Below, piece after piece: positions 3,463 to 46,407 of a stretch of 64,000 nt of DNA. Source of the DNA: Vicinamibacterales bacterium (GTDB lineage Bacteria; Acidobacteriota; Vicinamibacteria; Vicinamibacterales; 2-12-FULL-66-21); NCBI GenBank assembly GCA_035699745.1, contig DASSPH010000099.1, forward strand, positions 129,841 to 193,840. The letters run 5' to 3'. Both the position numbers and the translations under genes were made by a program. A model generated the notes under the pieces. It worked only from the letters and a program-made list of their open reading frames with translations, ran no database searches and had not been told where the DNA came from. Each line of letters begins with the position of its first letter. Within the stretch, counting starts at the first letter, position 1.

Positions 3463-6317
3463 CTACCGTGACGCGGGCGCCGCCGCCTTCGGAACTTTGC
3501 CGAGGCTGATCAGATTCGCCATCAGCTGGTAGGCGCCGACGGTGCCGTACGGGAGCTGGCGCCAGAGACCCAGCCCGACATACAGCCACCGGCCCTTGCC
3601 AAACCGCGCTTCGACAAGCGCCCCGCCTTTCGTCCCAGGGTTGTACTCGAACGGATCCTGGAGCTGGACGAGGTCCTTGTATTGCGCGTCCTTCTCGCCG
3701 AGGAAGTAGAGGCCGCGCTCCTGCACCCAGCCGTCCCAGGCATCCTGCCGGATGCGGTTCGGGTAGGTGAACGCGTGGTGCTCCTTCTCGAGGATCTGCA
3801 CCGGCGCGGTCTCGTCGGTGACGCGGTTGCTGCTGACCAGCGCCGGATAGGGACCGTACTGCGCCTGGTTGAACTCCGCCGTCTTGTTGTACTGGACGAT
3901 CAGCGTGCCGCCGTCCTGCACGTACTTGATCAGGCGGTGGTTGTAGGCCTTGAGATCCTCGCGGCGCTCGTAGGCGCGAATGCCCAGCATGATCGTGTCG
4001 AACCGCGACAGGTTGCCGTAGGCGAGCTCGTCGCTGTCGATCATCGTCACCCGCACGCCGAGCTGATCGAGCGCCTGCGGCACGAGATCGCCGACGCCCA
4101 TCACATATCCCATGCGGATGTTCGGCGCGACGCCGACGTCCACGACCTTCACCGTCGTCGCCGCCGGGATCACCTTGTGCCGCCGCTGGATGTGCGGGTA
4201 CTCGATCACCTGGTACCCCTCGGTGAACTGCTCGGCGCCGGTGAGGTCGGGCGCCTTCGCCCCGGTGGCGCGCGCCTTCAGCGCGAACTGCCCCGGCGCG
4301 GGCCCGGCGGGCGGCGTCACCGTGAAGCGCACCGTGCTGGTCTCCCCTTCCGCCGAGAGCGAGATCGGCGCGGAGGCCGGCGCGACCCGCCAGCCGGCCG
4401 GAACCTCGAGCGCGATGCTGGCGGTCGCCGCCCCCTTGGTGTTGTTCTCGACCGTGACACGCACGTCCTTGCGCCGATCGACGCCCGCCGCGACCTTCAC
4501 CGGGACGATCATCACGTTCGGGGAGACGGTCAGCGACAGGCCGGGCACGACCTTCAGCTCCATGCGCTTCTCGCCCGTCGCGAGATCGCCGGCGTAGCGA
4601 TACTGCACCGGCATCTCGTGCGTCACGCCGACCCCCTTGACGTCGAACTCGAACTGCGCGCGGAACGGCGTCGGCCGGAACGGCAGTCCGTACGGCGAAT
4701 CCGGCTCCAGCTCGGCGCGCCCGGACTCGGGCAGCCGGACCCAGTACGGGTTGGTCAGCTTCGCGTTCGCCGGGATCCTGACGTCGGACGCGCAGGAGAA
4801 CGCCGGCGCGCTGCGCAGCGGACCGAGGTTCTGGCACGCCGCGCCGCCGTCGAAGCCGGTGAGCGTGACGCTCTTGATCGAGGCGCCTTCCGGTCCGCGA
4901 TTCGCGACGCTGGTGGTGACGCGAACCGGCTGATTCCCCATCACGATCCCGTCGTCCGCAATCGCGTCGATGCGAAGTCCCTGCGCCAGGACGATCGCCT
5001 GCTGGTACTGCTGCTCCTTCTGCGCCAGGCGGAAGTCGATCTCGTACCTCGCGAGGTCGCCCAGGCCCATCCCGCCGAGCCCCGACCGCAGCGCCCGCAC
5101 CGCGGTCAACCCCTGCAGCAGCGAAGGCAGCGTCACCGACGGATCCTGCGAGCCCATGAACGCCTTCTGCGCGTCGAGGCCGTGATTGGTGATCTGCGCC
5201 AGTCCCTCGCGCAGACCCGCCGGGGCGTTCGCGCCGGCGTACTGGGAGAGGCTGGCAAGCGTGGTGTCGATCCCCTCGAACAGCGACGTCTCGTCCTTGT
5301 TCCTCTGCGACTCGATCGTCGTCAGCGCCAGGCGGTAGCGCGCGCCGCTGGCGCCGCCGAAGTTCTGAATCGGCGACCGCCCCTGGCACTTGTGCATGCT
5401 CGCGGCCACGCTGCCGACCTCGCCGATCGTGCAGCCGATCAGCGGGTCGTACATCGACGTGTCGATGGTCGCGTACTTCGCGTTGGGATCCGGTGGAGGT
5501 GGAGCCGGGAGATCACCGCCAGCCGGCGGCTGTCCCGCCGCAGCCCGACCCTGGCCGGCGGGCGGAGGCGGACCGCCCCGTCCTCGTCCGCGTCCCCCAG
5601 GCCCGCCGGGCCCGCCCAGCCGGCCGCCGAATCCACCGCCGCCCGGCTGATACAGCTTCTTGATCTGCCAGGGGCGCAGTCCTTCTTTCAGCTGCTCCGG
5701 ATACTTCGTGGGATCGGCCGCCGCGGCGAACGCTTCCGCGGTGAGCGTCGCCGACACCATGTGGTGCTGCCCGCCGCCGGTCCCCGTCGGGTTCAAGGTG
5801 ACGACCACGTCGGGGCGGATCGTGCGGATCATGCGCACGAAGTCGCCGAGGATCTCGTCGTGCCCCCACTTCTGGAGCGTCTCCTGCGGGCTGAACGAGA
5901 AGCCGAAGTCGACGGCGCGCGTGAAGTACTGCTCCGCCCCGTCCCAGCGGTGCGCCTGCAGCAGTTCCTCGGTGCGCAGCACGCCGATGGCGTCGAACAG
6001 CTCCGGGCCGATCTCGTTCTGGCCGCCGTCGCCGCGCGTCGCGGTCAGCAGCGCGACGCGCATGCCCTGGCCGCGTGCGTGGAGGGCGAGGATCCCGGTG
6101 TTCTCGTCGTCGGGATGCGCCGTGGTGTGCATGAAGGTGCCGACGGTGGTGAGCCGCCGCAGCGCCAGGCCGAGCCCCACCTGCCCTCGTGCGTCCGTCA
6201 GCGGCTCGACGAAGAACTGCGGCGAGCGCTGCTGCGCTCTCGCACCGAAAGCCAGTGCCGAGACGGAAAGGGCCAGGACGCCCGACGCCAGAACGGACCG
6301 GGGAGCTTTCATGAGCA
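3463..6317 (-). CDS. PIG-L/LmbE-family deacetylase fused to a C-terminal ThuA/GATase1-like domain, with signal peptide
   Basis: True start MLMKAPRSVLASGVLALSVSALAFGA at 6317; the track merges it into a spurious 1985-aa ORF (3463..9420). Contains the HTTAHPDDE motif of PIG-L deacetylases. The C-terminal 250 aa (MGYVMGVGDLVPQALDQLGVRVTMIDSDEL...LIVQYNK) resemble the ThuA/class-I amidotransferase-like fold. A Gly/Pro-rich linker lies in the middle. Confidence 0.75.
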
Positions 6318-6320
6318 TGC

Positions 6321-9257
6321 CTAGAACGCGAACTTGAACCCGAGCTGGAACTTCCGCTGCTCGTAGCCGTTCAGCGGCAGGAAGTCCTTGCCTTCGGCCG
6401 GCAGGCTGGTCAGGGACGAGACGACGGTGCCGAACACCAGCGGCGAGAGCACGTTGCCGGCGGTGTCGACGTTGACGCCGTTGCGGACGCCCGAGGTCTG
6501 CACGATGTTGAAGATGTTCTTGAACTCGCCGAGGATCTCGACGCGGCGGGTGCCGCCCAGCGGAATGAACCGCGACAGCCTCGCGTCGACGTTCCACCGC
6601 GCCGGCAGATAGTACGAATTGCGTCCGACGTTCAGCGGTCGATCGTTGTTGTTGCCATCGCCGTTGAGGTCGCGGTTGCCGGTCAGCGTGAACGGCAGCC
6701 CGCTGTTGAACTGCAGGATGACGCCGACCTGGTTGTCGCTGAGCAGCCGGCGCAGCGCGCCCGGGCCGCGGGTGACGCGCGACATCGCGACGATGCTGCC
6801 GTTGAACGAGTGGCGCGTGTCGAGGGCGTTCGGACCCTTGTCCCGCTCGAGGTTCTGCGGATCGGAGCGCGGCTGATCGCCCTGGACCGACAGCGTGGCG
6901 CCCGCGAGCGGCGCCGTGTCGATGCCCTTGCCGAGCGTGTAGTTCAAGTCCCACTGCACGCCGCTGGCCGAGCGCTTGCCGAAGGTGAGCAGCAGCGCCT
7001 TGTAGGTCGACTCGCCCGGCGACTGGACGACGTTGATGTTGTTGAACCGCGGATCGAGGCGCGTGCCGGCGTTGACCGTCGTGCTGTAGATGCCGCGGCC
7101 GTCCGCCAGCGTGCCGATCGGGTTGATCGGATTGATATTGGTGATGACCGGCAGGTTGTAGCCGCGGTTGTAGACCACGCCGATCGAGCCGTTGTACGCC
7201 TTGCCAAACCCGCGCGCGTACTGCGCGCTGTTCTGGATGTTGTAGGCCAGCTCGAGATCCGGATCGGGCGCGAAGATCGACTGCGCCGGGAGCACCGCGC
7301 CGGCCGGCAGGTTCGACAGCGTGCCCGGGAACGCCGGCGCGCCGATGCCCGTCGCCGCCACCGAATACGTCGTCCGGGCCGGCAGGCCGTTCTGCTGGAT
7401 CGCGTTCTCGTAGACGGCGAGCAGCGGCTGGTCGTACATGATGCCGGTGCTGGCGCGCACGACCTGGTCCTTCTTCTCGCCGAGCGTCCACGCGACGCCG
7501 AGGCGCGGCCCCCACTGGTGGGTGTGATCCTTGAAGCTTCGCGAGTACGCAAACGGCGCGCTGCCGTTCGCCTCCGGGTAGAAGTAGGAGTCGTAGCGGA
7601 CGCCGTAGAGGACCTTCAGATCCGACGTGAGCCGCCAGTCGTCCTGCCAGAACGCGCTGAACAGCTGACTGTTCATCTTGAAGTTCGGATCGCCGATCAC
7701 CTGCGCGAACGTGGTGTAGCCGCGCGGATTGGTGCCGTTCACGGCCGCCAGATAGGCCGCCACCGTCGGGAACGTGTAGGTCGTCGTCAGCGCCACCGCG
7801 CGCGTATCGGCGACGAACTGGTAGTCGATCCCCGCCTTGAAGCTGTGGCGCCCGCGGATCAGCGTGAAGTTGTCGAGCACCTGCGTGATCCCCTGGACGA
7901 AGTCTTCGCCGTCCGACGTCGGGCGCCCGAAGTTGATCGCGTTGCTGATGTTCACCGAGATGCCGGTTGGCGCCCCTTCGTGCGCGGTGCGCGACTGATG
8001 CCGCCGCGCGTACTGCACCCGGAGCTCGTTCAGCCGGTTGGCGCCCCAGTTCGACACGAACTGCGCCGCCGTCGAGCTCATGCGATCGGCGAAGTCGAAG
8101 CCGCGCTCGATCGCCGTGATGCCGCCGGCGCCGCCGTTGTACGGATTGTTGTTGGAGAACAGATTGGTGCGGAGGGTCAGCCGGTGTCCCGCGGCGAGCT
8201 GCGCGTCGATCTTGCCCAGGAAGAACCGCACGTTCTGATACGCCGGCACCGAGTTCGGCTGCGCCGGCAGCCCCACCTGCGCCACCAGCGCCGGCGTGAA
8301 GGTGAAGGTATTGGTCATGTCGCGGTACGTCCGCTCGAACCCGGCGTAGTAATGCACGCGATCCCGGACGACCGGCCCGCCCGACGACGCGGTGACCGTA
8401 TTGACGACGTCTTTCGGCTTGTTCTCGGCGGTCCGCGGGGTGATCGTGGTGTAGAAGGGATAGGCGCTGAACGGCGTGCGGCGGAAGCGGTAGCTCACGT
8501 CGCCGCGCAGCCTGTTCGTGCCCGACGGCGTGATCGCGTTGTAGACCAGCCCCATCGTCTGGCCGAATTCCGGCGCGTAGCCGCTGGTCGTGACCTTGAC
8601 TTCGCCGATGGCGACCTCCGACATCGGCATCAGGCGCAGCCCGGCGCGGTCCTTCTGCGTGTTGGTGTTGCCGTCCATCTGATAATTGATGCGCAGCAGC
8701 GAGCCGTTGGCGCTGAAGCGCGGCACGCCGAACTCGGAGTTCTCGAGGCCGCTGACGCCGGGCTGCAGCAGCGCGAAGTTGTACGGGTTGCGCGACACCA
8801 GCGGCAGATTGTGGATCTCGCGCTCGTTCAGATTGCGCCCCACGTCGATCTTGCCGAGATCGACGACCGCGGCCTCCGACTGCACCGAGACGACCTCGGT
8901 GATCCCGCCGATCTCCATCTTGATGTTGACGACCGCCGCCGCGCCCGCGGTGATCGGGATGCCGGTCTGCTCGTGCTTCTTGAAGCCGGCGAGTTCGGCC
9001 GCCACCGTATACGCGCCGAGCGGCAGGAGCGGCGCGCGATAGAGCCCGTTCGCGTCCGTGACGACGACGCGCTCGGCGCCGGTGTCGGTGTTGCGGATCG
9101 TGACGGTGACGCCGGGAAGCAGTCCGCCGGATGCATCGGTAATGGTCCCCTCGATGGTGCCGTTCACGGCCTGCGACTGCGCGCCGGCGGTGCCCGCCAG
9201 CATGAGCAGCGACAGGACCAGCACGGCCACTCGACGTGTTCCGCCTGCGACGTTCAT
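6321..9257 (-). CDS. TonB-dependent outer-membrane receptor with N-terminal carboxypeptidase-regulatory-like domain
   Basis: 978 aa. Signal peptide; N-terminus GTIEGTITDASGGLLPGVTVTIRNTDTGAERVVVTDANGLYR (CarbopepD_reg-like); plug/barrel-like body; C-terminal aromatic terminus ...GFKFAF. Stop at 6321-6323, 1 nt before the start of the deacetylase gene. Confidence 0.85.
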   Translation of the reverse strand: MNVAGGTRRVAVLVLSLLMLAGTAGAQSQAVNGTIEGTITDASGGLLPGVTVTIRNTDTGAERVVVTDANGLYRAPLLPLGAYTVAAELAGFKKHEQTGIPITAGAAAVVNIKMEIGGITEVVSVQSEAAVVDLGKIDVGRNLNEREIHNLPLVSRNPYNFALLQPGVSGLENSEFGVPRFSANGSLLRINYQMDGNTNTQKDRAGLRLMPMSEVAIGEVKVTTSGYAPEFGQTMGLVYNAITPSGTNRLRGDVSYRFRRTPFSAYPFYTTITPRTAENKPKDVVNTVTASSGGPVVRDRVHYYAGFERTYRDMTNTFTFTPALVAQVGLPAQPNSVPAYQNVRFFLGKIDAQLAAGHRLTLRTNLFSNNNPYNGGAGGITAIERGFDFADRMSSTAAQFVSNWGANRLNELRVQYARRHQSRTAHEGAPTGISVNISNAINFGRPTSDGEDFVQGITQVLDNFTLIRGRHSFKAGIDYQFVADTRAVALTTTYTFPTVAAYLAAVNGTNPRGYTTFAQVIGDPNFKMNSQLFSAFWQDDWRLTSDLKVLYGVRYDSYFYPEANGSAPFAYSRSFKDHTHQWGPRLGVAWTLGEKKDQVVRASTGIMYDQPLLAVYENAIQQNGLPARTTYSVAATGIGAPAFPGTLSNLPAGAVLPAQSIFAPDPDLELAYNIQNSAQYARGFGKAYNGSIGVVYNRGYNLPVITNINPINPIGTLADGRGIYSTTVNAGTRLDPRFNNINVVQSPGESTYKALLLTFGKRSASGVQWDLNYTLGKGIDTAPLAGATLSVQGDQPRSDPQNLERDKGPNALDTRHSFNGSIVAMSRVTRGPGALRRLLSDNQVGVILQFNSGLPFTLTGNRDLNGDGNNNDRPLNVGRNSYYLPARWNVDARLSRFIPLGGTRRVEILGEFKNIFNIVQTSGVRNGVNVDTAGNVLSPLVFGTVVSSLTSLPAEGKDFLPLNGYEQRKFQLGFKFAF

Positions 9258-10612: not shown

Positions 10613-11800
10613 ATGACGACGATGTTGTGCATTGCGACGTACCGAAAAGGAGACGAGTTCCTGAAAGAATGCCGGCGCCAGGGCTGCCGCGTGCTCCTGG
10701 TGACCGACGAGACGCTGCGCGACGCGGACTGGCCGCGCGAGGCGATCGACGCCTTCTACTACGTGCGGCGCGACATGCCGGCCGGCGACATTCGCAAGGG
10801 GGCGGCATATCTGGCGCGCACCGAACGGCTGGATCGCATCGTGGCGCTGGACGACTTCGACGTCGAGACCGCCGCCATGCTGCGCGAGTACCTCCACGTG
10901 CCGGGCATGGGAGAGACGACGGGCCGTGCGTTCCGCGACAAGCTGGCGATGCGGTCGCGGGCGCGGGCGGCGGGGATTGCCTGTCCGGATTTCGTCCACG
11001 CGGTGAATCAGGATGCGATCCACGAGTGGACGGCGCGCGTCTCCCCGCCGTGGGTGCTGAAACCGCGCGCCCAGGCCGCGGCGATCGGGATCAAGAAGAT
11101 CGAATCGGCGGACGAACTGTGGAGCATCCTCGACACTCTCGGCGACGCGCGCCCCGAGTTCGTGCTCGAGCAGTTCGTGCCCGGCGACGTGTATCACGTC
11201 GACTCCCTCGTGCTCGATCGGACGGTCGTGTTCGCGCAGGCGAGCCGCTACGGAACGCCGCCGTTCGCGGTGGCCCATCAGGGAGGCATTTTCGTGACCC
11301 GCACGCTGGGCGCGGACGATCCGGTGGCGATCGCGCTCGAGGACATCAACGCGCGGGTCCTCGTCTCGTTCGGGCTGCAGCGCGGCGTGTCGCACACCGA
11401 GTTCATCCGCGCCGCCGACGGCACGATCCACTTCCTCGAGACGTCCGCGCGCGTCGGGGGAGCCTACATCGCGGACGTCGTCCATGCGGCGACGGGGATC
11501 AACCTGTGGCGCGAGTGGGCGAAGATCGAGATCGCCGGCGAGCACGGCCGCTACACGGTGCCGCCGGCGGCGGATCGATACGCGGGCATCGTGCTGTCGC
11601 TCGCGCGGCAGGAGCATCCCGACATGCGCGCGTACGACGATCCGGAGATCGTGATGCGGGTCGACAAACGCCATCACGCCGGCCTCATCGTCGCGTCTCC
11701 CGACGAGGCGCGGGTGCGCGCGCTGCTCGACGCCTACGCGTCGCGGTTCTATCGGGATTTCCACACCTCCGCGCCGGCCCCCGAGAGAGCGCACGATTGA
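10613..11800 (+). CDS. ATP-grasp superfamily ligase
   Basis: 395 aa. Central-domain motifs WVLKPRAQAAAIGIKKIESADELW and EQFVPGDVYHVDSLV, C-domain SHTEFIRAADGTIHFLETSARVGG. Confidence 0.75.
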   Translation: MTTMLCIATYRKGDEFLKECRRQGCRVLLVTDETLRDADWPREAIDAFYYVRRDMPAGDIRKGAAYLARTERLDRIVALDDFDVETAAMLREYLHVPGMGETTGRAFRDKLAMRSRARAAGIACPDFVHAVNQDAIHEWTARVSPPWVLKPRAQAAAIGIKKIESADELWSILDTLGDARPEFVLEQFVPGDVYHVDSLVLDRTVVFAQASRYGTPPFAVAHQGGIFVTRTLGADDPVAIALEDINARVLVSFGLQRGVSHTEFIRAADGTIHFLETSARVGGAYIADVVHAATGINLWREWAKIEIAGEHGRYTVPPAADRYAGIVLSLARQEHPDMRAYDDPEIVMRVDKRHHAGLIVASPDEARVRALLDAYASRFYRDFHTSAPAPERAHD

Positions 11801-35783: not shown

Positions 35784-35900
35784 GGTTACTCTCCTTGGGG
35801 CGGCCGCCATGACCGCGTTCTGATGGCTGGTCGAATGCGTGCCGCGCGGATCGACAAAGTCGCACCGCGGAAGCACCTGTCATACACTCCAGCGCACGAC

Positions 35901-36755
35901 ATGAAGCTCATCGTGGAGCCGGAAGGGGGCATCGGCCCGATTCTGAGGGCGATCGCCCAAGCGAAGAGCGCGATCGACATCGTGATCTTCCGCCTGGACT
36001 GCCGCTCGGTGACGCGCCACCTCGAGGACGCGGTGCGCCGCGGGGTGCTGGTCCGGGCGATGATCGCCCGGAAGCACCGCGGGCATTCCCGCGATCTGCG
36101 CAAGCTCGAGCGCCGCCTGCTGCGGTCGGGCGTCATCCTCTCCCGCACCGCCGGCGATCTCGTGCGCTATCACGGCAAGATGATGATCGTGGATCGGCGC
36201 ATCCTGCACGTCTACGGGTTCAATTACACCCGCCGCGACTACGAGAGCCGCAGCTTCGGCATCGAGACCACGGATCCCGCCCTGGTGCGCGAGGCGCTGA
36301 AGCTGTTCGACGCCGACGCGGCGCGGCGGCCCTATCGCCCCGGTCACCGCGATCTGGTGGTCAGTCCGGCGAATTCGCGCGAACGGCTGGCGGCGTTCAT
36401 CCGGGGCGCGCGCCGGCAGCTCCTCATCTACGACCCGCGCTTCAGCGATCGCGACATGCACGACCTGATCGCCGAGCGGTCCGGCGCGGGGGTCGACGTG
36501 CGCGTCATCGGCAAGGTGCGGCACCTGCGATCGCCGCTCGCCATCGAGAAGTTCCCCGGCTTCCGGCTCCACGTCCGGGCGATCATCCGGGACGGGACGC
36601 ACGCGTTCGTGGGCAGCCAGAGTCTCGGCCCGATCGAGCTGGATCGGCGCCGCGAGGTCGGCGTCATCGTCCGGGACGCCGCCATCGTCCGGCGCATGCG
36701 GTCGGTGTTCGAGGGGGACTGGTCGCAGACCGGCGCCGCGAGAGCCGCCGGGTAG
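35901..36755 (+). CDS. Phospholipase D-like (HKD) domain protein
   Basis: Start MKLIVEPEGGIGPILRAIAQAKSAIDIVIFRL. Two HxK motifs: YHGKMMIVDRR and LHVRAIIRDGTHAFVGSQSL. The track's long N-terminal extension (from 34893) is junk. Confidence 0.8.
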   Translation: MKLIVEPEGGIGPILRAIAQAKSAIDIVIFRLDCRSVTRHLEDAVRRGVLVRAMIARKHRGHSRDLRKLERRLLRSGVILSRTAGDLVRYHGKMMIVDRRILHVYGFNYTRRDYESRSFGIETTDPALVREALKLFDADAARRPYRPGHRDLVVSPANSRERLAAFIRGARRQLLIYDPRFSDRDMHDLIAERSGAGVDVRVIGKVRHLRSPLAIEKFPGFRLHVRAIIRDGTHAFVGSQSLGPIELDRRREVGVIVRDAAIVRRMRSVFEGDWSQTGAARAAG

Positions 36756-36767
36756 CGCCCAGCTCCC

Positions 36768-36814
36768 AAAATCGCTCACCCAAAATCCCTCACGCCGGTG
36801 GCCTCCTGTTGACA
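36768..36814 (+). promoter_or_regulatory. Conserved direct-repeat motif plus TTGACA upstream of padR (copy 1)
   Basis: AAAATCGCTCACcCAAAATCCCTCACGCC, then 12 nt, then TTGACA (36809-36814), 32 nt before the ATG at 36846. Near-identical to copy 2 at 43248..43280. Confidence 0.5.
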
Positions 36815-36845
36815 TTCGACCCGAGTAGGAGCAGACTCCTGTCGC

Positions 36846-37196
36846 ATGTCTACCCAAGACGATAAGGAGCGGATCGCCCTTCTGCAGGGAACATTGGATC
36901 TGCTCATTCTTCGGGTATTGATCTTTGGGGGCCAGCACGGCCAGGGCATCGCCCGGGCAATCGAGCAGCAAACGGACGGGACACTACTCGTCGACCACGG
37001 GTCTCTTTATCCCGCCCTGCAGCGCCTTGAGCGCCGCGAGTGGATCGAGGCGGAATGGGGCACGTCGGACAACAACCGGAGGGCTCGCTTCTACCGGCTC
37101 ACGCGCGCCGGACGCAAGCGGCTGACTGCAGGTACGGGCCAGTGGTACCGGCTGAGCGCGGCCATCGCACGAGTCCTCGGACCTGAACAGGCCTAG
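36846..37196 (+). CDS. padR: PadR family transcriptional regulator
   Basis: 116 aa. [14 protein letters not shown]...[40 protein letters not shown] is the PadR wHTH. Confidence 0.9.
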
Positions 37197-37198
37197 TT

Positions 37199-39817
37199 AT
37201 GGCGCGTCGCCACGACCCTTCGGATGACGAGTTTCGGGAAGAAGTCGAGTCGCACGTCGCGCTCGAGACCGACCGCCTGCTGGCCGAGGGCGTCAGCCCA
37301 GAGGAAGCCGCAATGGCGGCCCGGCGAAAGTTCGGGAACGTCACCCGTGTCCGGGAGAACTTCTACGAATCGCGGCGCGTGATGTGGTTCGAGGACCTGC
37401 GACATGACACGCGCTTTGCAGTGCGCTCCTTGCAACGCAGCCCCGCGTTTACAGCCGTGGCCCTTTTGACTCTGGCAATAGGCCTGGGCGCAAATACGGC
37501 GATCTTCAGCGTCGTCAATGCGGTTCTGCTGCGCCCACTTCCGTATAACGCGCCTGACCAGTTGGTCCTGCTGGAGCATCCGCCGCTTGGCGGGAGCCCC
37601 GCCTGGTTAAGAGACGCCTGGCACGCGCGATCGCGCACGCTGACGGAGTTCGCCGGCATCGAGCCGTCCGCGCCAGCGACACTCGTCGCCGGAATTCAGC
37701 CGATGCCTGTCAACGCTGCGCACGCCACGGCGAACTTCTTCGCACTGCTGGGCATCAAGGCTTCGCTCGGAAGGATCTTCGCCGAGACAGATACCCAGCC
37801 TGGGGCGCCGGCGGTCGCGGTGCTCAGCCACAGCTTCTGGATTCGGCAGTTTGATGCCAGTGCCGACACCATCGGCAAGAGCATCACGCTGACGGATGTA
37901 ACCTTGACGGGCGAGCCGCGCGTTATCATCGGCGTGCTCCCAGCCGATTTCCGCTTCCCCGTTGCGGACCCGCCTGGTGAAGCACCGATATTCGCGAGGA
38001 TGCAACCAGATGTCATCGTTCTCTCCCGGGATGACGCGTTTCAGCAGGTGATTGGAAGGCTCGCTCCCGGAACGACAGCGGCGAAGGCCTCAACCGAGTT
38101 GTCCGGCATCTTTGCCCAAGAAGCGTCCGCACGTTTTTCGGCGCGTTTCGTTGAGCGCACGCGTGTCATCGCAATGCCTCTTCAGGATCGCCTCGTCGGC
38201 AATGCCCGGTATCGGCTGCTGCTGCTCATGGGTGCCGTGGGCTGTGTTCTCCTCGTGGTGTGCGCCAACATCGCCAGCCTTCTGTTGGCGCGCATCACCG
38301 GACGCGGACCCGAGTTTGCCGTCCGCGCGGCGCTCGGCGCGCGGACCGGCCGCCTTGTACGCATGATCCTGACAGAGAACGTCCTCCTCGCCATTTTCGG
38401 CGGCGCAGTTGCACTGTTCCTCGCGTACTGGAGCAATGACGTGCTCCGCTCGCTGCTCGCAGGTCGTGTCTCCTACGTCGAAACCGTCGCACTTGACTGG
38501 CGGGTGTTGGCCTTCAATCTCGCCGTCGCCGCGGCTATGGGTGTGGTCTGCGGGCTCGCATCTCTCGCGACGATTTGGTCGACCCGGCACGCAGGGAGCA
38601 CGACCGCAGCTGGTCGATCCATCACCCGACGCCCGCGCCTAGGTTTGACCCTTGTGGCCGGGGAAGTCGCCGTCGTGTTCGTCTTAGTCTTGATGGCGGC
38701 GCTGTTGTCTCAGACGCTCTGGAACCTTCGTCACACCAGGCGAGGTTTTGACGCGAGCGGACTGCTGACCGCCGGGGTGATGCCGGGAGCGTCCGGCACC
38801 ATTCCCGAGTTGCAGAACCTGACCGTGACGTTCTTCGGCACGATCGTCGATCGCATCGCTCGAGAGCCGAATGTGGAATCGGTAGCGGCAGCGTCAACCG
38901 TGCCGTTCAGCGGTCCGGCTATGGGGATGTCCGGCGTGTCGGTCGTGGGCCGCCAGGCACCCGACAAGACCCCGCCAGTCTCTGTCGCGGCCGTCACACC
39001 GGGCTATTTCGCGACGATGCGGATCCGGTTGATAGGTGGCCGTGATTTCAACAGGGGGGATGTTCCGTCGCGAGACCGCGTCGCCATTGTCAACGAGGCT
39101 TTCTTGCGAGTGATCGCGTCGGCCCTGACACCTGGCACAGAGATCCAGTTTGGCCGCTCTCGCCTGACAGTAATCGGCATCGTCGAGAACACACCGGACA
39201 CGTCGCTCCGGCGACCGGCTCGGCCGTTTGTGTATCTCCCAATGGCTCAGACCATCGGCAGCCAATTCGCTTTCGGCCGGTTGATGATCCTAGTGCGCGC
39301 GCGTAGTGGCGACCCGGCCGCGCTGATCCCCACCCTGCGCAACACCGTCTGGAGCCTCGGACACGACATCGTGATAGATGACGTCAGCACGATGGACGAA
39401 CGGGTCGGCGCGGCAGTGCGCACGGAGCGGGACAGCGCGCTGTTGTTTGGAGTGCTAGGCGCCATCGCACTAGTCGTTGCCGTCGCCGGTGTGTACGGTG
39501 TCGTCGCGTACTCGGTTTCGCAGCGCACTCGGGAGATCGGGATTCGAACGGCTATCGGTGCGACTCATCGTCAGGTGGTGGCCGGCATCGTCCGAGAGTC
39601 GGTTTGGCCCGTCGCAATCGGGATAGGAATCGGGGCTGCCACCGCGGTCGTCGTCGTGCGCGCGATCGCGGGACTTCTTTTTGAAATTAGGCCCACGGAT
39701 CCGCCGACCTACGTCGGGACGGCCGTCGCTCTGACTCTTACGGCCTTGGCGGCAGCGTGGATTCCCGCACGGCGGGCTGCTGGGGTCGATCCGGTCACGG
39801 CACTTCGCGCTGAATAG
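37199..39817 (+). CDS. ABC transporter permease, FtsX-like duplicated (MacB-like) family
   Basis: 872 aa. Two FtsX-type 4-TM modules, each with a periplasmic domain; C-terminal IPARRAAGVDPVTALRAE. Starts 2 nt after the padR stop. Confidence 0.9.
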   Translation: MARRHDPSDDEFREEVESHVALETDRLLAEGVSPEEAAMAARRKFGNVTRVRENFYESRRVMWFEDLRHDTRFAVRSLQRSPAFTAVALLTLAIGLGANTAIFSVVNAVLLRPLPYNAPDQLVLLEHPPLGGSPAWLRDAWHARSRTLTEFAGIEPSAPATLVAGIQPMPVNAAHATANFFALLGIKASLGRIFAETDTQPGAPAVAVLSHSFWIRQFDASADTIGKSITLTDVTLTGEPRVIIGVLPADFRFPVADPPGEAPIFARMQPDVIVLSRDDAFQQVIGRLAPGTTAAKASTELSGIFAQEASARFSARFVERTRVIAMPLQDRLVGNARYRLLLLMGAVGCVLLVVCANIASLLLARITGRGPEFAVRAALGARTGRLVRMILTENVLLAIFGGAVALFLAYWSNDVLRSLLAGRVSYVETVALDWRVLAFNLAVAAAMGVVCGLASLATIWSTRHAGSTTAAGRSITRRPRLGLTLVAGEVAVVFVLVLMAALLSQTLWNLRHTRRGFDASGLLTAGVMPGASGTIPELQNLTVTFFGTIVDRIAREPNVESVAAASTVPFSGPAMGMSGVSVVGRQAPDKTPPVSVAAVTPGYFATMRIRLIGGRDFNRGDVPSRDRVAIVNEAFLRVIASALTPGTEIQFGRSRLTVIGIVENTPDTSLRRPARPFVYLPMAQTIGSQFAFGRLMILVRARSGDPAALIPTLRNTVWSLGHDIVIDDVSTMDERVGAAVRTERDSALLFGVLGAIALVVAVAGVYGVVAYSVSQRTREIGIRTAIGATHRQVVAGIVRESVWPVAIGIGIGAATAVVVVRAIAGLLFEIRPTDPPTYVGTAVALTLTALAAAWIPARRAAGVDPVTALRAE

Positions 39818-39859
39818 CCCGCGTGCCGATGGTTCGCCTCGGGACGTGAACCTCGGCCC

Positions 39860-39968
39860 TTGTAGACCCCCTCTGAAGCGACCTCAATTCTGAGTATACG
39901 CGACTGGGGTATATTGTTATTGTATATAATGCGGCGAGATGCGCTATATCAACTATCATAATATACCC
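39860..39968 (+). promoter_or_regulatory. AT-rich segment (about 30% GC) with TATA-like repeats upstream of the AbiEi-like gene; likely promoter/operator and island boundary
   Basis: ...ctcaattctgagtatacgcgactggggTATATTGTTATTGTATATAATGcggcgagatgcgcTATATCAACTATCATAATATAccc. Contains a perfect TATAAT (39924-39929). Contrasts sharply with the 70% GC flanks. Confidence 0.45.
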
Positions 39969-39970
39969 AC

Positions 39971-40789
39971 ATGGCTGCAGACGATCGGAAGGTGGTCGCC
40001 GCGCTCGCGAGAGCCGCAAAAGGCGGTGTGGTCTCTCTACCCGCCGCACTTCACGCAATTGACGGCCCGCCCGCAAAGGCGGCGCTTCGACTTCGCCGGC
40101 TCATCCGCCACGGTTGGATCGAACGGCTGCGGCGGGGCCTTTACTTAGTCAAGCCGCTCAGCGCGGCTCCCGACCAAGCGGCTATCCCAGAGGACCCGTG
40201 GGTGCTGGCTCGCGAGGTCTTCTCCCCCTGTTACATCGGCGGATGGAGCGCAGCCGAACACTGGGAGCTGACCGAACAGATTTTCCGATCGACGTTGGTT
40301 GTGACCGCTGTGCCTGCTCGAAAGACCGAGCTGCGTATTGGGGGCTACGACTTCCGCGTGTTCCGCGTTCACCGAACTCGTCTCGCTGCCGGAGTCGTCA
40401 ACGTCTGGCGAGGGCCCGAACGGGTCCAGGTCTCTGGACTCGAGCGGACAATCGCGGACGGTCTCCGAGATCCGGAGCTTGTCGGCGGAGGTCGCCATCT
40501 GGTGCAGCTTCTCCGCGCATACGGAGAGCATAAGGACCGCAATTTCGTCCGCTTGCTTGATGTCGCCCGACATACTGCTTCCGGCGCGGCTTGGAAGCGG
40601 CTGGGGTTTCTAAGCGAACGCCTCTGGCCCGCAGAAGTCAAGGTCGTCACCGCCGCCGGCCGCCATCTCACGGCAGGCTACGTCCGTCTCGACCCTGGCA
40701 ATAGACACCATGGAAAGCTCTCCAAGCGGTGGCGGCTCTGGATCAACGTGCCGGTTTCTGACCTGACATCCGAGCCGGCCGCTTCATGA
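39971..40789 (+). CDS. AbiEi-like antitoxin / transcriptional regulator (type IV TA)
   Basis: 272 aa. N-terminal wHTH-like region; C-terminal domain typical of AbiEi/COG5340-like proteins. Stop overlaps the start of the following nucleotidyltransferase gene (ATGA). Confidence 0.7.
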   Translation: MAADDRKVVAALARAAKGGVVSLPAALHAIDGPPAKAALRLRRLIRHGWIERLRRGLYLVKPLSAAPDQAAIPEDPWVLAREVFSPCYIGGWSAAEHWELTEQIFRSTLVVTAVPARKTELRIGGYDFRVFRVHRTRLAAGVVNVWRGPERVQVSGLERTIADGLRDPELVGGGRHLVQLLRAYGEHKDRNFVRLLDVARHTASGAAWKRLGFLSERLWPAEVKVVTAAGRHLTAGYVRLDPGNRHHGKLSKRWRLWINVPVSDLTSEPAAS

Positions 40790-42182
40790 TTGCCAAGCAA
40801 GACATCCTCGATCGCGCTGCCGAATGGCACTTGCGCCCGGAAGTGGTCGAAAAGGACTACGTGCTCGGATGGCTGCTCGCAGGCGTTGCCGCCCTGCCGA
40901 CTCTCTCTGGATTTTCAAGGGCGGCACATGCGTCAAGAAGTGTTTCTTCGAGACATATCGTTTCTCGGAGGACCTGGACTTCTCCCTGCGGCCGGATGCG
41001 CCGTATACGCAGGACGAACTCGTGGCGCAGCTTCGAGAACTGACTGCGCACGTCGCAGAGCTGACCGGCCTGGAGTTTCCGGCTGACCTCGTCGATGTGA
41101 AAACGAGGCAGAACAAGCAAGGGCTACCGACGTTCGAGGGTCGCGTCGCCTATCGCGGTCCCCTCGAGTATCCAGGCTCTCCCAAGATTCGCTTCGACAT
41201 CACGCGACACGAGCCGGTCATCGACGATCCGGCCGAGCGGCCGATTCTGCATCCCTACCCTGACGCGTTGCCCGAGGGCGTCGCCGTGCTCACGTATTCG
41301 TTCGAGGAGTTGCTCGCCGAAAAGACTCGCGCTTTGCTCGAGCGATCGCGGCCTCGCGATTTGTACGATGTCGTTCACCTTCTCGAGAATGCGCCTACGG
41401 ATCTCAATCTGGTCGACGTTCGCAGGCTGTTCGCAAAGAAATGCGCGGGCAAAGCCATCGCGCTGCCTTCGTCGATCGAATTGATCGGCATCGTTGCCGG
41501 CGACGCCGAACTGCGATCCGAGTGGGCGAGTATGCTTGCGCACCAATTGCCAGCATTGCCGGACTTGGACGCGATGCTCTCGAGGCTGCCTGCGGTTCTT
41601 GGCTGGTTGGATGCTCCGTCAAAGCCCCTTCCCGAGACGCAGCTGCCTCGAGTGCCCGTTGGCGAGGGCCTTAGCCCAATCGTTGCACCGGGGATTCGGT
41701 ACTGGGGCGCCGGCTCGCCACTCGAGTCGATCCGGTTCGCGGCGACCAACCGTCTCATGCTCGAGTTCGAATACCACGGCAAGCACCGGCAGGTGGAACC
41801 GTATTCGGTCCGACGAGCTGGCACTGGGAACGTCCTTCTGTACGCTTGGGAACTCGCAGACGGTCACATGAAGGCGTACAAGGTCGACGAAATGTCCGCT
41901 GTCAAGGCGATGAGCGCCACGTTCTCACCGCGATACCAGGTCGAGATCTCGGCGTATGGACCAATACAGGCGTCTTCCACGGCAGCGCATCCGAGAATCA
42001 CGACACCGCGGCAACCGCGCCCCCATTCCGCGCGTCGCGGACCAACCTATATATTTCAGTGCTCGTATTGCGGGAAACGGTTTGAACACTCCACCAATGA
42101 CTCAGCCCTCCGGGAGCACAAAACGCAATCGGGCTGGAAATGCTCGGGACGACGAGGGTACTTAGTCGACGCACGATATTGA
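40786..42182 (+). pseudogene. AbiEii/AbiGii-family nucleotidyltransferase toxin with C-terminal WYL-like and zinc-finger extension; apparent frameshift at (CT)4 near 40901-40908
   Basis: Frame 1 from ATG 40786 gives MIAKQDILDRAAEWHLRPEVVEKDYVLGWLLAGVAALPTLS, the conserved AbiEii N-terminus. Conserved FKGGTCVKKCFFETYRFSEDLDFS continues in frame 0 (track ORF 40824..42182). The junction is actCTCTCTCTgg. The C-terminal 150 aa add R-x-V-x-PY...LLYAWELA...KAYKVDEM (WYL-like) and CSYCGKRFEHSTNDSALREH (C2H2-like). Confidence 0.6.
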
Positions 42183-43208
42183 CTAAACGGTGCGGCGCCA
42201 CTCAAGCCATCTGCTGGCCAAGATCTGGTAATTCCGCGGCGGATGATCTCTGGCACTTTCCCCATGAACGATTCCGAACATCACCGAGTCGCTGGCGGTA
42301 AGAAATCGAAGAAGAATTCCGGTCCACGGGGCCAAGGGAGGAACTCGCCCCGAACCTCCGAGCGCTTTCCTTCGTGGCCTTTGACCCTGTCGTAAAACGT
42401 CGAATCCCTTGGGCCAGGTAGAAGTACGAGATGGCGTCCCATGAGAACTGCAACGCCACCGTCCAGAATTCCTGGCTCCCGAATAATTACCAGGGCTCGA
42501 GCGTCCTTTGGGCTGCTGGGAAACGCGAATCCCGAAGAGCGACGGCGCGGACGTTCGGATGTCGATCTTCTGTCGAACGACTTCATAGGCGGGATCGAGG
42601 ACAAATCGGTATCCGAACTTCGCAAACGCGACGATACATGCTGCCCGTAACCAAGACACAGCCGCGTGGGAAGAGTTGTATTGCTCACGAAATTGCAGCT
42701 TGACATTCCAGTCGCGATCTCCACTCTCCACCAAGCGATTCAGCTCGGCGACGAACGCGGCGTGCGCTGTAGGGGAGTTACGATTCTCATCTCCAAACAA
42801 CTGCATACCCGTCGGCCCGGCTTCCAGCGTCATGTTGACTTGGGTTTGGCCGAGCGCCACCCGAACCCGCTGATCCCGCAGAACACCCGGAGGGTCGTCT
42901 TCGTAACGGGCTGCAATACTCGCGTGAGAGTCCAACATCGATCCCGCGGTGTGATTCCACCTGGCGCACGTCAACGCGATCGCGCGACCACCGGCGAACT
43001 CCGGCGGCGCATGTTCGGCAGTCAGTTGATTCGTTCCAACGGCGGGCCGCATGAAAGCCCGAAAAAGGGTCGGCGTGACGCAAAGGGGGCAGATGTAGAC
43101 GGGACCAATGTGCGGCGGCAGGACGTCGCGGACCACCGATGGGCAAGTCTGCGCGAACGCCTCCGCCCCGCGGTCGAACCACGCAAGGCGCGTTTGCAGC
43201 TTGGGCAT
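42183..43208 (-). CDS. HNH-nuclease-like protein (N-terminal His-Me finger motif), low-GC
   Basis: YICPLCVTPTLF...LTAEHAPPEFAGGRAIALTCARWNHTAG fits CxxC...EH..P..GG....C..N. Local GC is about 57%, versus 70% in the flanks. The C-terminal third is low-complexity and may not be genuine. The stop abuts the AbiEii stop (convergent). Confidence 0.45.
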   Translation of the reverse strand: MPKLQTRLAWFDRGAEAFAQTCPSVVRDVLPPHIGPVYICPLCVTPTLFRAFMRPAVGTNQLTAEHAPPEFAGGRAIALTCARWNHTAGSMLDSHASIAARYEDDPPGVLRDQRVRVALGQTQVNMTLEAGPTGMQLFGDENRNSPTAHAAFVAELNRLVESGDRDWNVKLQFREQYNSSHAAVSWLRAACIVAFAKFGYRFVLDPAYEVVRQKIDIRTSAPSLFGIRVSQQPKGRSSPGNYSGARNSGRWRCSSHGTPSRTSTWPKGFDVLRQGQRPRRKALGGSGRVPPLAPWTGILLRFLTASDSVMFGIVHGESARDHPPRNYQILASRWLEWRRTV

Positions 43209-43247
43209 TCCTATTCAGCACTGATCGTACCTCGAAGCGTCCTCTTC

Positions 43248-43280
43248 GCAATCGCTCACCAAAATCCCTCACGCTTGACA
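43248..43280 (+). promoter_or_regulatory. Conserved direct-repeat motif plus TTGACA upstream of padR (copy 2)
   Basis: GCAATCGCTCACCAAAATCCCTCACGC immediately followed by TTGACA (43275-43280), 61 nt before the ATG at 43342. Confidence 0.5.
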
Positions 43281-43341
43281 GCGCCGCGCCGGACGGAGGA
43301 AACTTTCCGCTCCCATAGTTCGTCTATGCAAAGAGCGGCTG

Positions 43342-43686
43342 ATGAAGGAACCGAAGGCGAAGAACAAGAACGAGCTGCTGCCCGGCACGCTCGAGATGCT
43401 GATCCTCAAAACCCTGTCGATCGGGCCGATGCACGGCTACGGCATCGCCCAGCACATCCAGATGCTGTCGGCTGACGTGCTGACGATCGAAGAGGGATCG
43501 CTGTACCCGGCCTTGCAGCGGATGCGCGTCAAGGGGTGGCTGTCGGCCGAGTGGAAAATCTCGGCGAACAACCGCCGGGCGCGGTTCTACACGCTCACCG
43601 CCGCCGGGAAGAAGCAGCTCGGCCTCGAGGAAGCACGGTTTTCCCAGATGTTCGGCGCGATCATGCGGGTGATGAAGACGACGTAG
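43342..43686 (+). CDS. padR: PadR family transcriptional regulator (paralog 2)
   Basis: 114 aa. LLPGTLEMLILKTLSIGPMHGYGIAQHIQ...[22 protein letters not shown]. Confidence 0.9.
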   Translation: MKEPKAKNKNELLPGTLEMLILKTLSIGPMHGYGIAQHIQMLSADVLTIEEGSLYPALQRMRVKGWLSAEWKISANNRRARFYTLTAAGKKQLGLEEARFSQMFGAIMRVMKTT

Positions 43687-43710: not shown

Positions 43711-46407
43711 GTGGGTTCGTTTCTCCGACGTCTGCTGTTCTTCTTCCAGCGCAACCAGTTCGATCGCGATCTGCAGGACGAGCTGCGCTTCCACGAGGAG
43801 ATGAAAGCGGACGCCCTGGCCGACGCCAACGGCATCAGCGCCGACGAGGCGCGGGCGGCGGCGCGCCGGCGGGTCGGCAATCCCCTGCGGCTGCGCGAGC
43901 AGTCCCGCGAGCCGTGGACCTTCGCGACCGTGGAAACGTCCGCGCAGGACGTGCGCCACGCGCTGCGCCTGATGAGGCGGGCGCCGGCCTTCACCGTCAC
44001 CGCGCTCGCGATCCTCGCGCTCGGCATCGGACTCAACACCGCGATCTTCTCCGTCGCCTACGGCGTGCTCTGGCGGCCGCTGCCCTACCCCGACCCCGAT
44101 CGACTGATCATCGTCCAGTCCGCGCAGCAGACCGAGCGGGGCGTCAGGACCTTCTCGACCTGGTCGCCGGTGTCCTACGACGCGCTCCGCCCGCGCGTCA
44201 CCGCGTTCGAACATCTCGCGGCCTATGTCACGCTCGACGCGCAGCTCAGCGGACGCGGCGAGCCGGCGCAGGTCCAGGGGCTCGAAGTCAGCCCGAACTT
44301 CTTCGCGATGCTGGGCGTCACGCCCGCGCGCGGACGCCCTTTCCTCACCGGCGCCGCCTCGTCAGACGACGATCGCACCGCCATCGTCAGCGATCGACTC
44401 TGGCGCACGTCTTTCGGCGCCGATCCGGCGATCGTCGGACAGTCGATCACCGTCGACGGCATCCCGCGTACCGTCATCGGCGTCATGCCGCCGGATTTCG
44501 GCTTCAGGCCGGTGATCCGGATTGGCGCGCTGCCGGAAACCGATATCTTTCTGTTCAATCGCTGGGCCGGCGACACGGGCCGGAGCGCGTTTCTCTTCCT
44601 GCTGGGGCGCATGAAGCCGGGCGTCACGCAGGAACGCGCCGAAGCGGAATTGACGGCGCTGGTGAACGAGCCGTCGATCGCGCCCACCGGCGCCCTGGGA
44701 ATGGAGGGCACACTCGCGGCGAACGTCCGCACGCTGGCTCGCACAGTCCGCCTGCAGGCCTACGGCATGGAGTCGGTGCGGCCGCTGCTCCTGATCCTGC
44801 TCGGCGCGGTGTCGTTCGTGCTCCTGATTGCGTGCGTCAACGTCGCCAACCTGCAGATGGCGCGCCTCACGGCCCGGCGCGGCGAACTCTCCGTCCGGAT
44901 GGCGCTCGGCGCGGGGCGCCGGCGGATCGTGCGTCAGCTACTGACCGAGGCGGTCGTGCTGTCGCTGCTGGGCGCGTCGCTGGGCGTGCTGCTCGCGCGG
45001 ATCGCGATCGACGTCACGCTGCCGCTCGTCCCGCCGTCCGCGCTGCCCGGCGTCGGCGGGATCGTGATCGACGGCGGCGTGCTGGCGTTCTGCCTCGGCC
45101 TGTCGCTCGTCTCGACGCTGCTGATCGGGCTCCTCCCGGCGCTGCGTGTCAGCGGAACAGCGTTCGGTGAAGGGCTCGCGCTGCACGCCGGCGAGACGCG
45201 AACGACGGGGGACCGCCAGGGCGAACGGCTGCGGACGCTGCTGGTCGCCGGGCAGATCGCCATGACGCTCGTGCTGCTGATCGGCGCGGGGCTGCTGATT
45301 CACAGCTTCCTGCGTCTCACGGCGGTGTCGCCGGGCTTCGAATCGCGCGGGCGCGACGGCGTGGTGCAGACCGTCCGGGTGACGCTGCCGCAACACCTGT
45401 ACGGGGAGCCCGGGCGGATCCATGCGTTCGCGCGCGGCGTGCTCGAGCGCGTCCAGAACCTGCCGGGGGTGACGTCGGCGAGCGTGATCAACTCGGCGCC
45501 GTTCGGCAGGATGTTCATCCAGCTCGACTTCAACATCGAGGGACAGCCGAAGCCCAGGCTCTCTGCCGGCACGCCGAAGATCGACGCCGGCTATTTCCGG
45601 ACGATGGGGATTCCGCTGCTGGCGGGACGGGACTTCACTGCCGCGGACACGGCGGGCGCGCCCAACGTGGCGATCGTCAGCGAGCGCATCGTGCGCGAGT
45701 ACTTTCCCGGCGGCCCGGTCGAGGCGCTCGGCCGGCGGATCCGCATCACCGACCGCGGCGAGTGGCTCACGGTGGTGGGCGTGGCGGCGGACATCCGTCA
45801 GATGGGGCTCGATCGCGACGTGCAGCCGATGATCTACGCGCCGTTCCAGCAGGACCGCAGCGGATTCCTCCGGTTCGTGTCGTTCGTCGCACGCACCACG
45901 ACCCCCTCGGCCGTGGTCGACGGCATCCGCGCCGAGATCCGCCGCGCCGCACCCGATCTACCGATTGCCGGCACGGTGACGATGGACGAAGCGGTTGCGG
46001 CGTCGGTGGCGCCGCCGCGGTTCCGGATGCTGCTGCTGGGGCTCTTCGCGGCGACCGCGATGCTGATTGCGACCTGCGGCATCTACGGCCTGATGGCCTA
46101 CGCCGTGACCCAGCGCCGCCGCGAAATCGGCGTGCGCATGGCGCTCGGCGCCCAACGCCGCGACGTGCTGCGCCTCGTGCTCGCACGCGCGCTCCGCATC
46201 GTCCTCGCCGGGGTGATCGTGGGCCTCGCCGGCGCCGCCGGCGTGACGCGGGTGCTGCAGCGGTTCCTGTTCGGGGTGACGCCGACCGATCCGGTCGCGT
46301 TCACGCTCGTCACGCTGCTGCTGGTAGCCGTGGGGCTGATGGCGGCGTGGCTGCCTGCACGGCGCGCGACCCGGATCGATCCGAGCGTCGCACTGCGCGC
46401 GGAATAG
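43711..46407 (+). CDS. ABC transporter permease, FtsX-like duplicated (MacB-like) family (paralog 2)
   Basis: 898 aa, GTG start. N-terminus VGSFLRRLLFFFQRNQFDRDLQDELRFHEEMKAD typical of this family. Two FtsX modules; C-terminus LPARRATRIDPSVALRAE. Confidence 0.9.
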   Translation: MGSFLRRLLFFFQRNQFDRDLQDELRFHEEMKADALADANGISADEARAAARRRVGNPLRLREQSREPWTFATVETSAQDVRHALRLMRRAPAFTVTALAILALGIGLNTAIFSVAYGVLWRPLPYPDPDRLIIVQSAQQTERGVRTFSTWSPVSYDALRPRVTAFEHLAAYVTLDAQLSGRGEPAQVQGLEVSPNFFAMLGVTPARGRPFLTGAASSDDDRTAIVSDRLWRTSFGADPAIVGQSITVDGIPRTVIGVMPPDFGFRPVIRIGALPETDIFLFNRWAGDTGRSAFLFLLGRMKPGVTQERAEAELTALVNEPSIAPTGALGMEGTLAANVRTLARTVRLQAYGMESVRPLLLILLGAVSFVLLIACVNVANLQMARLTARRGELSVRMALGAGRRRIVRQLLTEAVVLSLLGASLGVLLARIAIDVTLPLVPPSALPGVGGIVIDGGVLAFCLGLSLVSTLLIGLLPALRVSGTAFGEGLALHAGETRTTGDRQGERLRTLLVAGQIAMTLVLLIGAGLLIHSFLRLTAVSPGFESRGRDGVVQTVRVTLPQHLYGEPGRIHAFARGVLERVQNLPGVTSASVINSAPFGRMFIQLDFNIEGQPKPRLSAGTPKIDAGYFRTMGIPLLAGRDFTAADTAGAPNVAIVSERIVREYFPGGPVEALGRRIRITDRGEWLTVVGVAADIRQMGLDRDVQPMIYAPFQQDRSGFLRFVSFVARTTTPSAVVDGIRAEIRRAAPDLPIAGTVTMDEAVAASVAPPRFRMLLLGLFAATAMLIATCGIYGLMAYAVTQRRREIGVRMALGAQRRDVLRLVLARALRIVLAGVIVGLAGAAGVTRVLQRFLFGVTPTDPVAFTLVTLLLVAVGLMAAWLPARRATRIDPSVALRAE

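Follow-up and report, generated by a model that had tools for sequence, protein, structure and literature searches.

Elements of the CIME type are non-autonomous and cis-mobilisable, are bounded by attL and attR and carry no integrase of their own. IMEX, integrative elements that exploit XerCD at dif, encode no recombinase and have dif-like flanking repeats of 28 bp. Transposons are flanked by target-site duplications of 2–14 nt, and the promoter-targeting TnGBS/ISLre2 elements reportedly insert 15–17 bp upstream of sigma-A −35 boxes. Operators of the PadR/LmrR type are inverted repeats such as ATGT-N8-ACAT.

The locus described here lies in a 64-kb stretch of a Vicinamibacterales metagenome-assembled genome (68.6% GC), referred to below as the window. 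CIME elements are its closest match. As in att-flanked islets, two direct copies of a repeat surround a foreign segment with accessory and defence genes (AbiE, an HNH nuclease and an efflux-type cassette), and no recombinase lies inside. Nevertheless, the target here is a few bases upstream of a promoter −35 hexamer and not a tRNA gene or the 3′ end of a conserved gene; the repeat is itself a two-unit tandem; and no cognate integrase, excision product or empty site was seen at this locus. IMEX share the flanking repeats of about 26–28 bp and the missing recombinase gene, but the present repeat lacks two inverted arms around a central region and sits beside a promoter rather than at the replication terminus. 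With transposon insertions the locus has in common a duplicated target flanking the insert and an insertion directly upstream of a −35 hexamer that leaves the promoter intact. The 25–26 nt are long for a transposase target duplication, however, and the window contains neither terminal inverted repeats at the segment ends nor a transposase. Like the repeat, PadR-family operators occupy promoter regions of autoregulated padR operons, but the repeat is direct, precedes the −35 and lacks conservation.

Two direct repeats upstream of the padR genes

Read directly from the sequence, the left site (36768–36796) is AAAATCGCTCACCCAAAATCCCTCACGCC and the right site (43248–43275) is GCAATCGCTCACCAAAATCCCTCACGCT. 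They have in common the core AATCGCTCACC[C]AAAATCCCTCACGC (DR-L and DR-R; Table 1), and the only difference between the two cores is a 1-nt indel within the C run, giving 25/26 identity. DR-L starts about 15 nt past the stop codon of a PLD-like gene that belongs to the native left flank. DR-R lies on the same strand, 6480 nt away start to start.

A pattern scan of the 64 kb without gaps and with up to three mismatches detected no further copies, and none were expected from the 100 shuffles that served as chance control. DR-R falls outside such an ungapped scan owing to its indel and was recovered by other searches. The near-identical pair noticed in a first-pass annotation of this DNA is thus real, with exactly two copies in the window against a chance expectation of zero. 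Its observation that the surrounding intergenic sequence is dissimilar was also borne out: comparison of the flanks showed the DNA around the two copies to be mutually unrelated.

Each copy is itself a tandem repeat, as had been proposed, of two AAAATCSCTCAC units with a period of 14 at the left and 13 at the right. Unit 1 has G at the S position and ends in CC, while unit 2 has C and ends in GC, a difference that both copies preserve. It follows that one two-unit block was copied and that the sites are not arrays that evolved independently. The repeat is C+A-rich (A8 C12 G2 T4; 52% GC). No dyad symmetry or self-complementarity was found in it; its units are direct and it contains 2 G in 26 nt. 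Scans with Rfam and for tRNAs and consensus promoters or terminators returned no feature at the repeats.

The first-pass annotation had both copies abutting a TTGACA hexamer. This applies to DR-R, where the gap is 0 nt, but at the left site the hexamer begins 12–13 nt past DR-L. Both copies were also recovered, at 100% identity across 7.8 kb, in a Logan assembly made independently from a different sample (L001), which rules out an artefact of assembly or binning.

Table 1. Positions of the repeats, genes, promoters and predicted sites at the locus (numbering of the window; GC3, GC content at third codon positions)
Feature	Position	Strand	Remarks
PLD-like gene, native left flank	35835–36755	+	GC3 0.91
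Left direct repeat (DR-L)	36770–36795	+	AATCGCTCACCCAAAATCCCTCACGC; two tandem 14-nt units
Islet between the repeats	36796–43249		~6.45 kb; GC 0.622 vs 0.693 in both flanks
padR1 promoter	36809–36837	+	−35 TTGACA 36809–36814, 17-nt spacer, −10 CAGACT 36832–36837; predicted from conservation
Candidate PadR1 operator, imperfect inverted repeat	36817–36844	+	CGACCCGAG ... CTCCTGTCG; spans the −10 and the start codon; predicted
padR1, acidobacterial PadR (TIGR03433)	36846–37196	+	GC3 0.74, foreign
ADOP1, duplicated FtsX/MacB-type permease (TIGR03434)	37199–39817	+	GC3 0.74
AT-rich 27-nt inverted repeat	39907–39968		Just upstream of abiEi; resembles an AbiEi operator
abiEi / abiEii, type IV toxin–antitoxin / abortive-infection module	39971–40789 / 40824 or 40869–42182	+	GC3 0.67 / 0.68
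orf341 (341 aa), HNH_5-endonuclease-containing family	42183–43208	−	GC3 0.64
Right direct repeat (DR-R)	43250–43274	+	AATCGCTCACCAAAATCCCTCACGC; adjoins the −35 of native padR2
Native padR2 promoter	43275–43304	+	−35 TTGACA 43275–43280, 18-nt spacer, −10 GAAACT 43299–43304 (orthologs nAnACT)
Inverted repeat CATAG-TTCGT-CTATG	43314–43328	+	Nearly invariant in padR2 orthologs; likely PadR2 operator
Native padR2	43342–43686	+	GC3 0.92
Native ADOP2	43711–46407	+	GC3 0.905

Composition and gene content of the islet

The five genes between the repeats have GC3 values of 0.64–0.74, compared with 0.91–0.92 in the directly adjoining genes and 0.84–0.94 over the remaining window; plausible native ORFs elsewhere in it range from 0.80 to 0.94. 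A maximum-likelihood, two-boundary scan of total GC located the left change-point at 36760, no more than 10 nt from DR-L. The higher A+T content of padR2 at the first and second codon positions blurred the right boundary in total GC; GC3 set it between the HNH ORF and padR2. The copies exactly bracket the GC3-anomalous 6.5-kb segment, which fits the recombination or attachment motif that the first-pass annotation had offered as an alternative. Its statement that the repeat marks an island edge was right as to the edge but not as to the side: the copy that it took for the right edge forms the left boundary, the right boundary being formed by the other copy.

The closest PadR1 ortholog (locus L102, 92% identity) is encoded on a contig of 65.6% GC whose genes have GC3 values of 0.73–0.82, matching the islet and not the host. 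The PadR1 ortholog of L103 has a GC3 of 0.89, like its own genome. The composition of the islet and the match to L102 together point to a 6.5-kb segment of foreign DNA from a lower-GC relative, with the repeats at both of its junctions.

The two padR–ADOP cassettes are old paralogs, with amino-acid identities of 46% for PadR and 33% for ADOP, which excludes a recent cassette duplication. A longer duplication of the whole cassette had been named in the first-pass annotation as another source of the similarity; the duplication was instead found to be confined to 25–26 nt. PadR1 is 88–92% conserved in L102, L103 and L104, while the adjacent ADOP is only 58%, 32% and 83% identical, respectively. 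This gap suggests that regulator and permease have been reshuffled between cassettes.

Immediately before the start codon of abiEi lies ...CAATCATAATATACCC, which also precedes abiEi at the loci L107 (~9130–9180) and L108 (~5130–5185). Together with the AT-rich 27-nt inverted repeat upstream of abiEi, it is probably the autoregulatory operator of AbiEi. AbiEii of the window has about 437–452 aa, compared with 466 aa in close homologs. The abiEii stop codon adjoins the end of the convergent HNH ORF, and the AbiEii C-terminus may have been truncated by the neighbouring insertion.

The product of orf341 gave no match in Pfam, NCBIfam, PADLOC or PDB sequences, and its family assignment comes solely from homologs that carry HNH_5. 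This large, uncharacterised family comprises about 1400 cluster representatives, typically of 300–320 aa with an N-terminal HNH_5 domain. Homology is limited to residues 1 to ~230 of orf341, beyond which the sequence is rich in Arg, Ser, Pro and Gly. The C-terminal third is thus probably frameshifted, suggesting a frameshifted pseudogene.

Promoters and candidate operators of the padR genes

Sequences upstream of padR were compared across 80 loci of the family from Acidobacteriota and Gemmatimonadota genomes (L005–L084). Orthologs of padR2 were recognised at 21 of these loci (84–91% identity) and at the metagenomic loci L105 (94%) and L106 (92%), giving 23 promoters. Across Vicinamibacteria, PadR2 is conserved at 84–94% and ADOP2 at 71–89%. 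The ortholog alignment consists of ...acagTTGACAGC, an 18-nt spacer, an nAnACT −10 and a nearly invariant CCATAGTTCGTCTATGCAAAG, and continues down to the ATG. The direct-repeat motif was absent from all 23 promoters; their conservation starts only at TTGACA, and nothing is conserved at the position of the motif. It was also absent from the promoters of the three padR1 orthologs (L102, 92%; L103, 88%; L104, 90%), in which conservation runs from TTGACA onward, with CAGACT, GACACT or CATACT as the −10 and an inverted repeat that reaches the ATG. Upstream of the −35 their DNA is unrelated.

A search for the two-unit motif in related loci and loci of the same organism, 1.38 Mb in total, returned it only from the same-organism Logan contigs. 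At four further loci that carry two padR paralogs close together, the paralogs had no upstream motif in common, and when the repeat was compared with the DNA preceding the −35 in the orthologs, the similarity was not significant (p = 0.11). No synteny of the PLD-like gene, orf341 or abiE with the padR orthologs was detected; the orthologous loci have other neighbours.

A promoter layout of TTGACA, 17–18 nt and nAnACT is widespread in the family. At 57 of the 80 loci, where about zero would be expected, the 100 nt preceding the padR start contain an inverted repeat ATAG-N5-CTAT. From this distribution and its placement downstream of the −10, it is likely to be the family-wide operator of TIGR03433 PadR proteins. 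The searchable literature yielded no description of ATAG-N5-CTAT and no account of the regulation of ADOP or TIGR03433–34 cassettes. For padR1, the outline CGACCC ... ACTCnTGTCG of the candidate operator is kept in L103 and L104 and partly in L102. The −10 ends 8 nt ahead of the ATG, a layout that L102–L104 share. The padR1 transcript may consequently be leaderless, with a putative operator overlapping the start codon. Transcription is predicted to start at about 36844 for padR1 and about 43311 for padR2.

Other short tandem repeats were observed upstream of padR −35 hexamers. ACGCCAA is present twice just upstream of TTGACA in L005 and others and three times in L106. Tandem repeats in this position were noted in L005, L006, L009, L013, L016, L025 and L106, with a copy number that varies between genomes. 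Further arrays, of the TTAGCAGTTGGCC and CTAATCCCT types among others, lie upstream of the padR −35 in L044, L057 (CAATCGT, five copies), L059 and L069.

Occurrence of the motif in other collections

A scan of metagenome contigs gave 17 matches to the motif, all of them unrelated tandem repeats in other organisms; none came from this organism or from a padR context. Two contigs, L091 (30–53 and 880–940) and L098 (490–556), carry four to five tandem 13-nt AAAATCGCTCACG units, AAAATC(G/C)NTCACG, upstream of small ORFs of unknown function, and the likeness of these units to that of the window was selected by the search pattern. Both contigs have a GC content of 0.60–0.65, and their arrays look like iterons or operator arrays. 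Scans of viral contigs gave no two-unit match. Eight single-unit 16-mer matches were found there in unrelated contexts, no more than expected by chance.

Origin of the repeats

On balance, an islet of ~6.5 kb was probably inserted immediately upstream of the −35 of native padR2, and the repeats would be the direct repeats at its junctions, either attL/attR-like or arising from a long duplication of the target. A horizontally acquired segment with padR1–ADOP1, abiEi/abiEii and the HNH-family ORF would have entered between the native PLD-like gene and the −35 of padR2–ADOP2. One stretch of 25–26 nt just upstream of that −35 would thereby have come to be present on both sides of the islet, either through recombination there, leaving attL and attR, or through a long duplication of the target. 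In this reading the repeat would be a by-product of the insertion rather than a PadR operator, and the predicted operators would be separate sites downstream of each −35, CATAG-N5-CTATG for padR2 and CGACCCGAG...CTCCTGTCG for padR1. The exact bracket, the foreign composition, the lack of conservation and the copy-type identity are observations, whereas the direction and mechanism of the event and the identity of the ancestral copy are inferred.

Insertion accounts for the identity of the repeats, for the absence of the motif in orthologs and for the composition boundaries. It would also explain the unequal spacing to the −35, with the left copy now followed by islet DNA and the right one still next to the sequence that was natively beside it. 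The 25/26 identity extends to unit-specific variants and to bases outside the units, arguing for copying and not for convergent binding sites. Nevertheless, the bracketing geometry is partly forced by gene order. With padR1 opening the islet and padR2 following directly behind it, any motif ahead of each padR would fall on both boundaries as well.

The machinery that would have moved the islet was sought in the window. No integrase, transposase, resolvase or other recombinase was detected among the approximately 55 window ORFs screened with Pfam, with NCBIfam applied in addition to the eight around the islet. The only nuclease-like ORF among those screened is the HNH-family gene at the islet end, which is apparently damaged. 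Local alignment of the inner islet ends gave no terminal inverted repeats (score 7, null mean 8.0, p = 0.86). No tRNA or tmRNA was found in the window, and the insertion site is intergenic, adjoining the −35. Look-ups by exact protein for an empty site (PLD-like gene, single repeat, padR2) gave islet-bearing contigs or nothing, with no closer relative or second strain among them.

Close relatives of abiE occur in unrelated contexts, indicating that abiE modules are mobile. At L107, abiEi/abiEii have a GC3 of 0.78 compared with 0.94–0.98 in neighbouring genes, and an imperfect 20-nt direct repeat lies on both sides of the module (8991–9010 and 11477–11496; 17/20 identical). L107 may be a second example of an insertion with a long flanking duplication. 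No flanking repeat was found around the abiE module of L108.

The positions of the repeats could alternatively reflect a lineage-specific cis-regulatory site, in which an activator, repressor or response regulator binds the tandem units, or their A-tracts act in the manner of an UP element, to co-regulate both padR–ADOP promoters independently of the PadR autorepressor. We consider this possible but unlikely. Both copies are upstream of conserved padR −35 hexamers in the same orientation, but their offsets from the −35 differ by 12–13 nt and not by whole helical turns. The two motif copies and the two padR genes are each the only ones in the 64 kb, although one of the genes is recently acquired foreign DNA. 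Tandem units are generally known from sites of direct-repeat-binding regulators, but a period of 13–14 nt matches no standard tandem-binding family, and identity of 25/26 that includes spacer bases is far above what is usual for independent sites of a regulon. The motif is conserved in the ortholog promoters of neither gene and, the same-organism Logan contigs aside, is missing from the 1.38 Mb of related and same-organism loci. Against an UP element stand the C+A-rich rather than AT-rich composition and the lack of a fixed position relative to the −35. Regulation and insertion are not fully exclusive readings, as the native DNA ahead of the padR2 −35 could play some promoter-proximal role and stay functional even if the insertion duplicated it.

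It is decidedly unlikely that the repeats belong to a low-copy, dispersed family of non-palindromic intergenic repeats derived from short tandem repeats, which either reached both sites by chance or provided, as pre-existing copies, the homology for recombination or rearrangement of the islet. In related padR loci, short tandem repeats often lie directly ahead of the −35, but this motif is found in none of the relatives, and its two copies in 64 kb both lie at composition boundaries. Arrays of a near-identical 13-nt unit do occur in unrelated metagenome contigs; however, the metagenome and viral matches are unrelated in context and no more numerous than expected.

A small chance is given to an undescribed mechanism, recombinase-less or mobilised in trans, that places accessory and defence islets immediately upstream of −35 boxes with a direct duplication of about 20–26 nt. 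L107 would be a possible parallel, and the terminal gene of the islet, of the HNH family, may take part in such a mechanism.

The operator shared by both PadR paralogs that the first-pass annotation put forward is most improbable: the repeat does lie upstream of both padR genes, but it has no dyad symmetry, precedes the −35 entirely at each site and at different distances rather than overlying the promoter or transcription start, and is missing from the orthologous promoters, where ATAG-N5-CTAT is conserved instead (57 of 80 family members, about zero expected, and nearly invariant in padR2 orthologs). With this inverted repeat as the likely PadR operator, the puzzle of an atypical direct-repeat PadR site disappears. 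The earlier interpretation is, overall, partly supported. Readings as dif/IMEX sites, integron attC sites or UP elements were rejected on architecture, the units being direct, without dyad symmetry and not AT-rich.

Implications

An islet with flanking repeats is an ordinary kind of genome feature, and the locus is most likely another instance of this known type. If the insertion reading is true, the repeat should not carry an annotation as a regulatory operator. It would instead date and delimit the recent horizontal acquisition of a second PadR–ADOP efflux-type cassette together with an AbiE defence module in a Vicinamibacterales genome. Such islets would then be able to insert only a few bases away from a conserved promoter and leave it intact. 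The more useful lead is the promoter and candidate operator architecture of the uncharacterised acidobacterial PadR/ADOP family.
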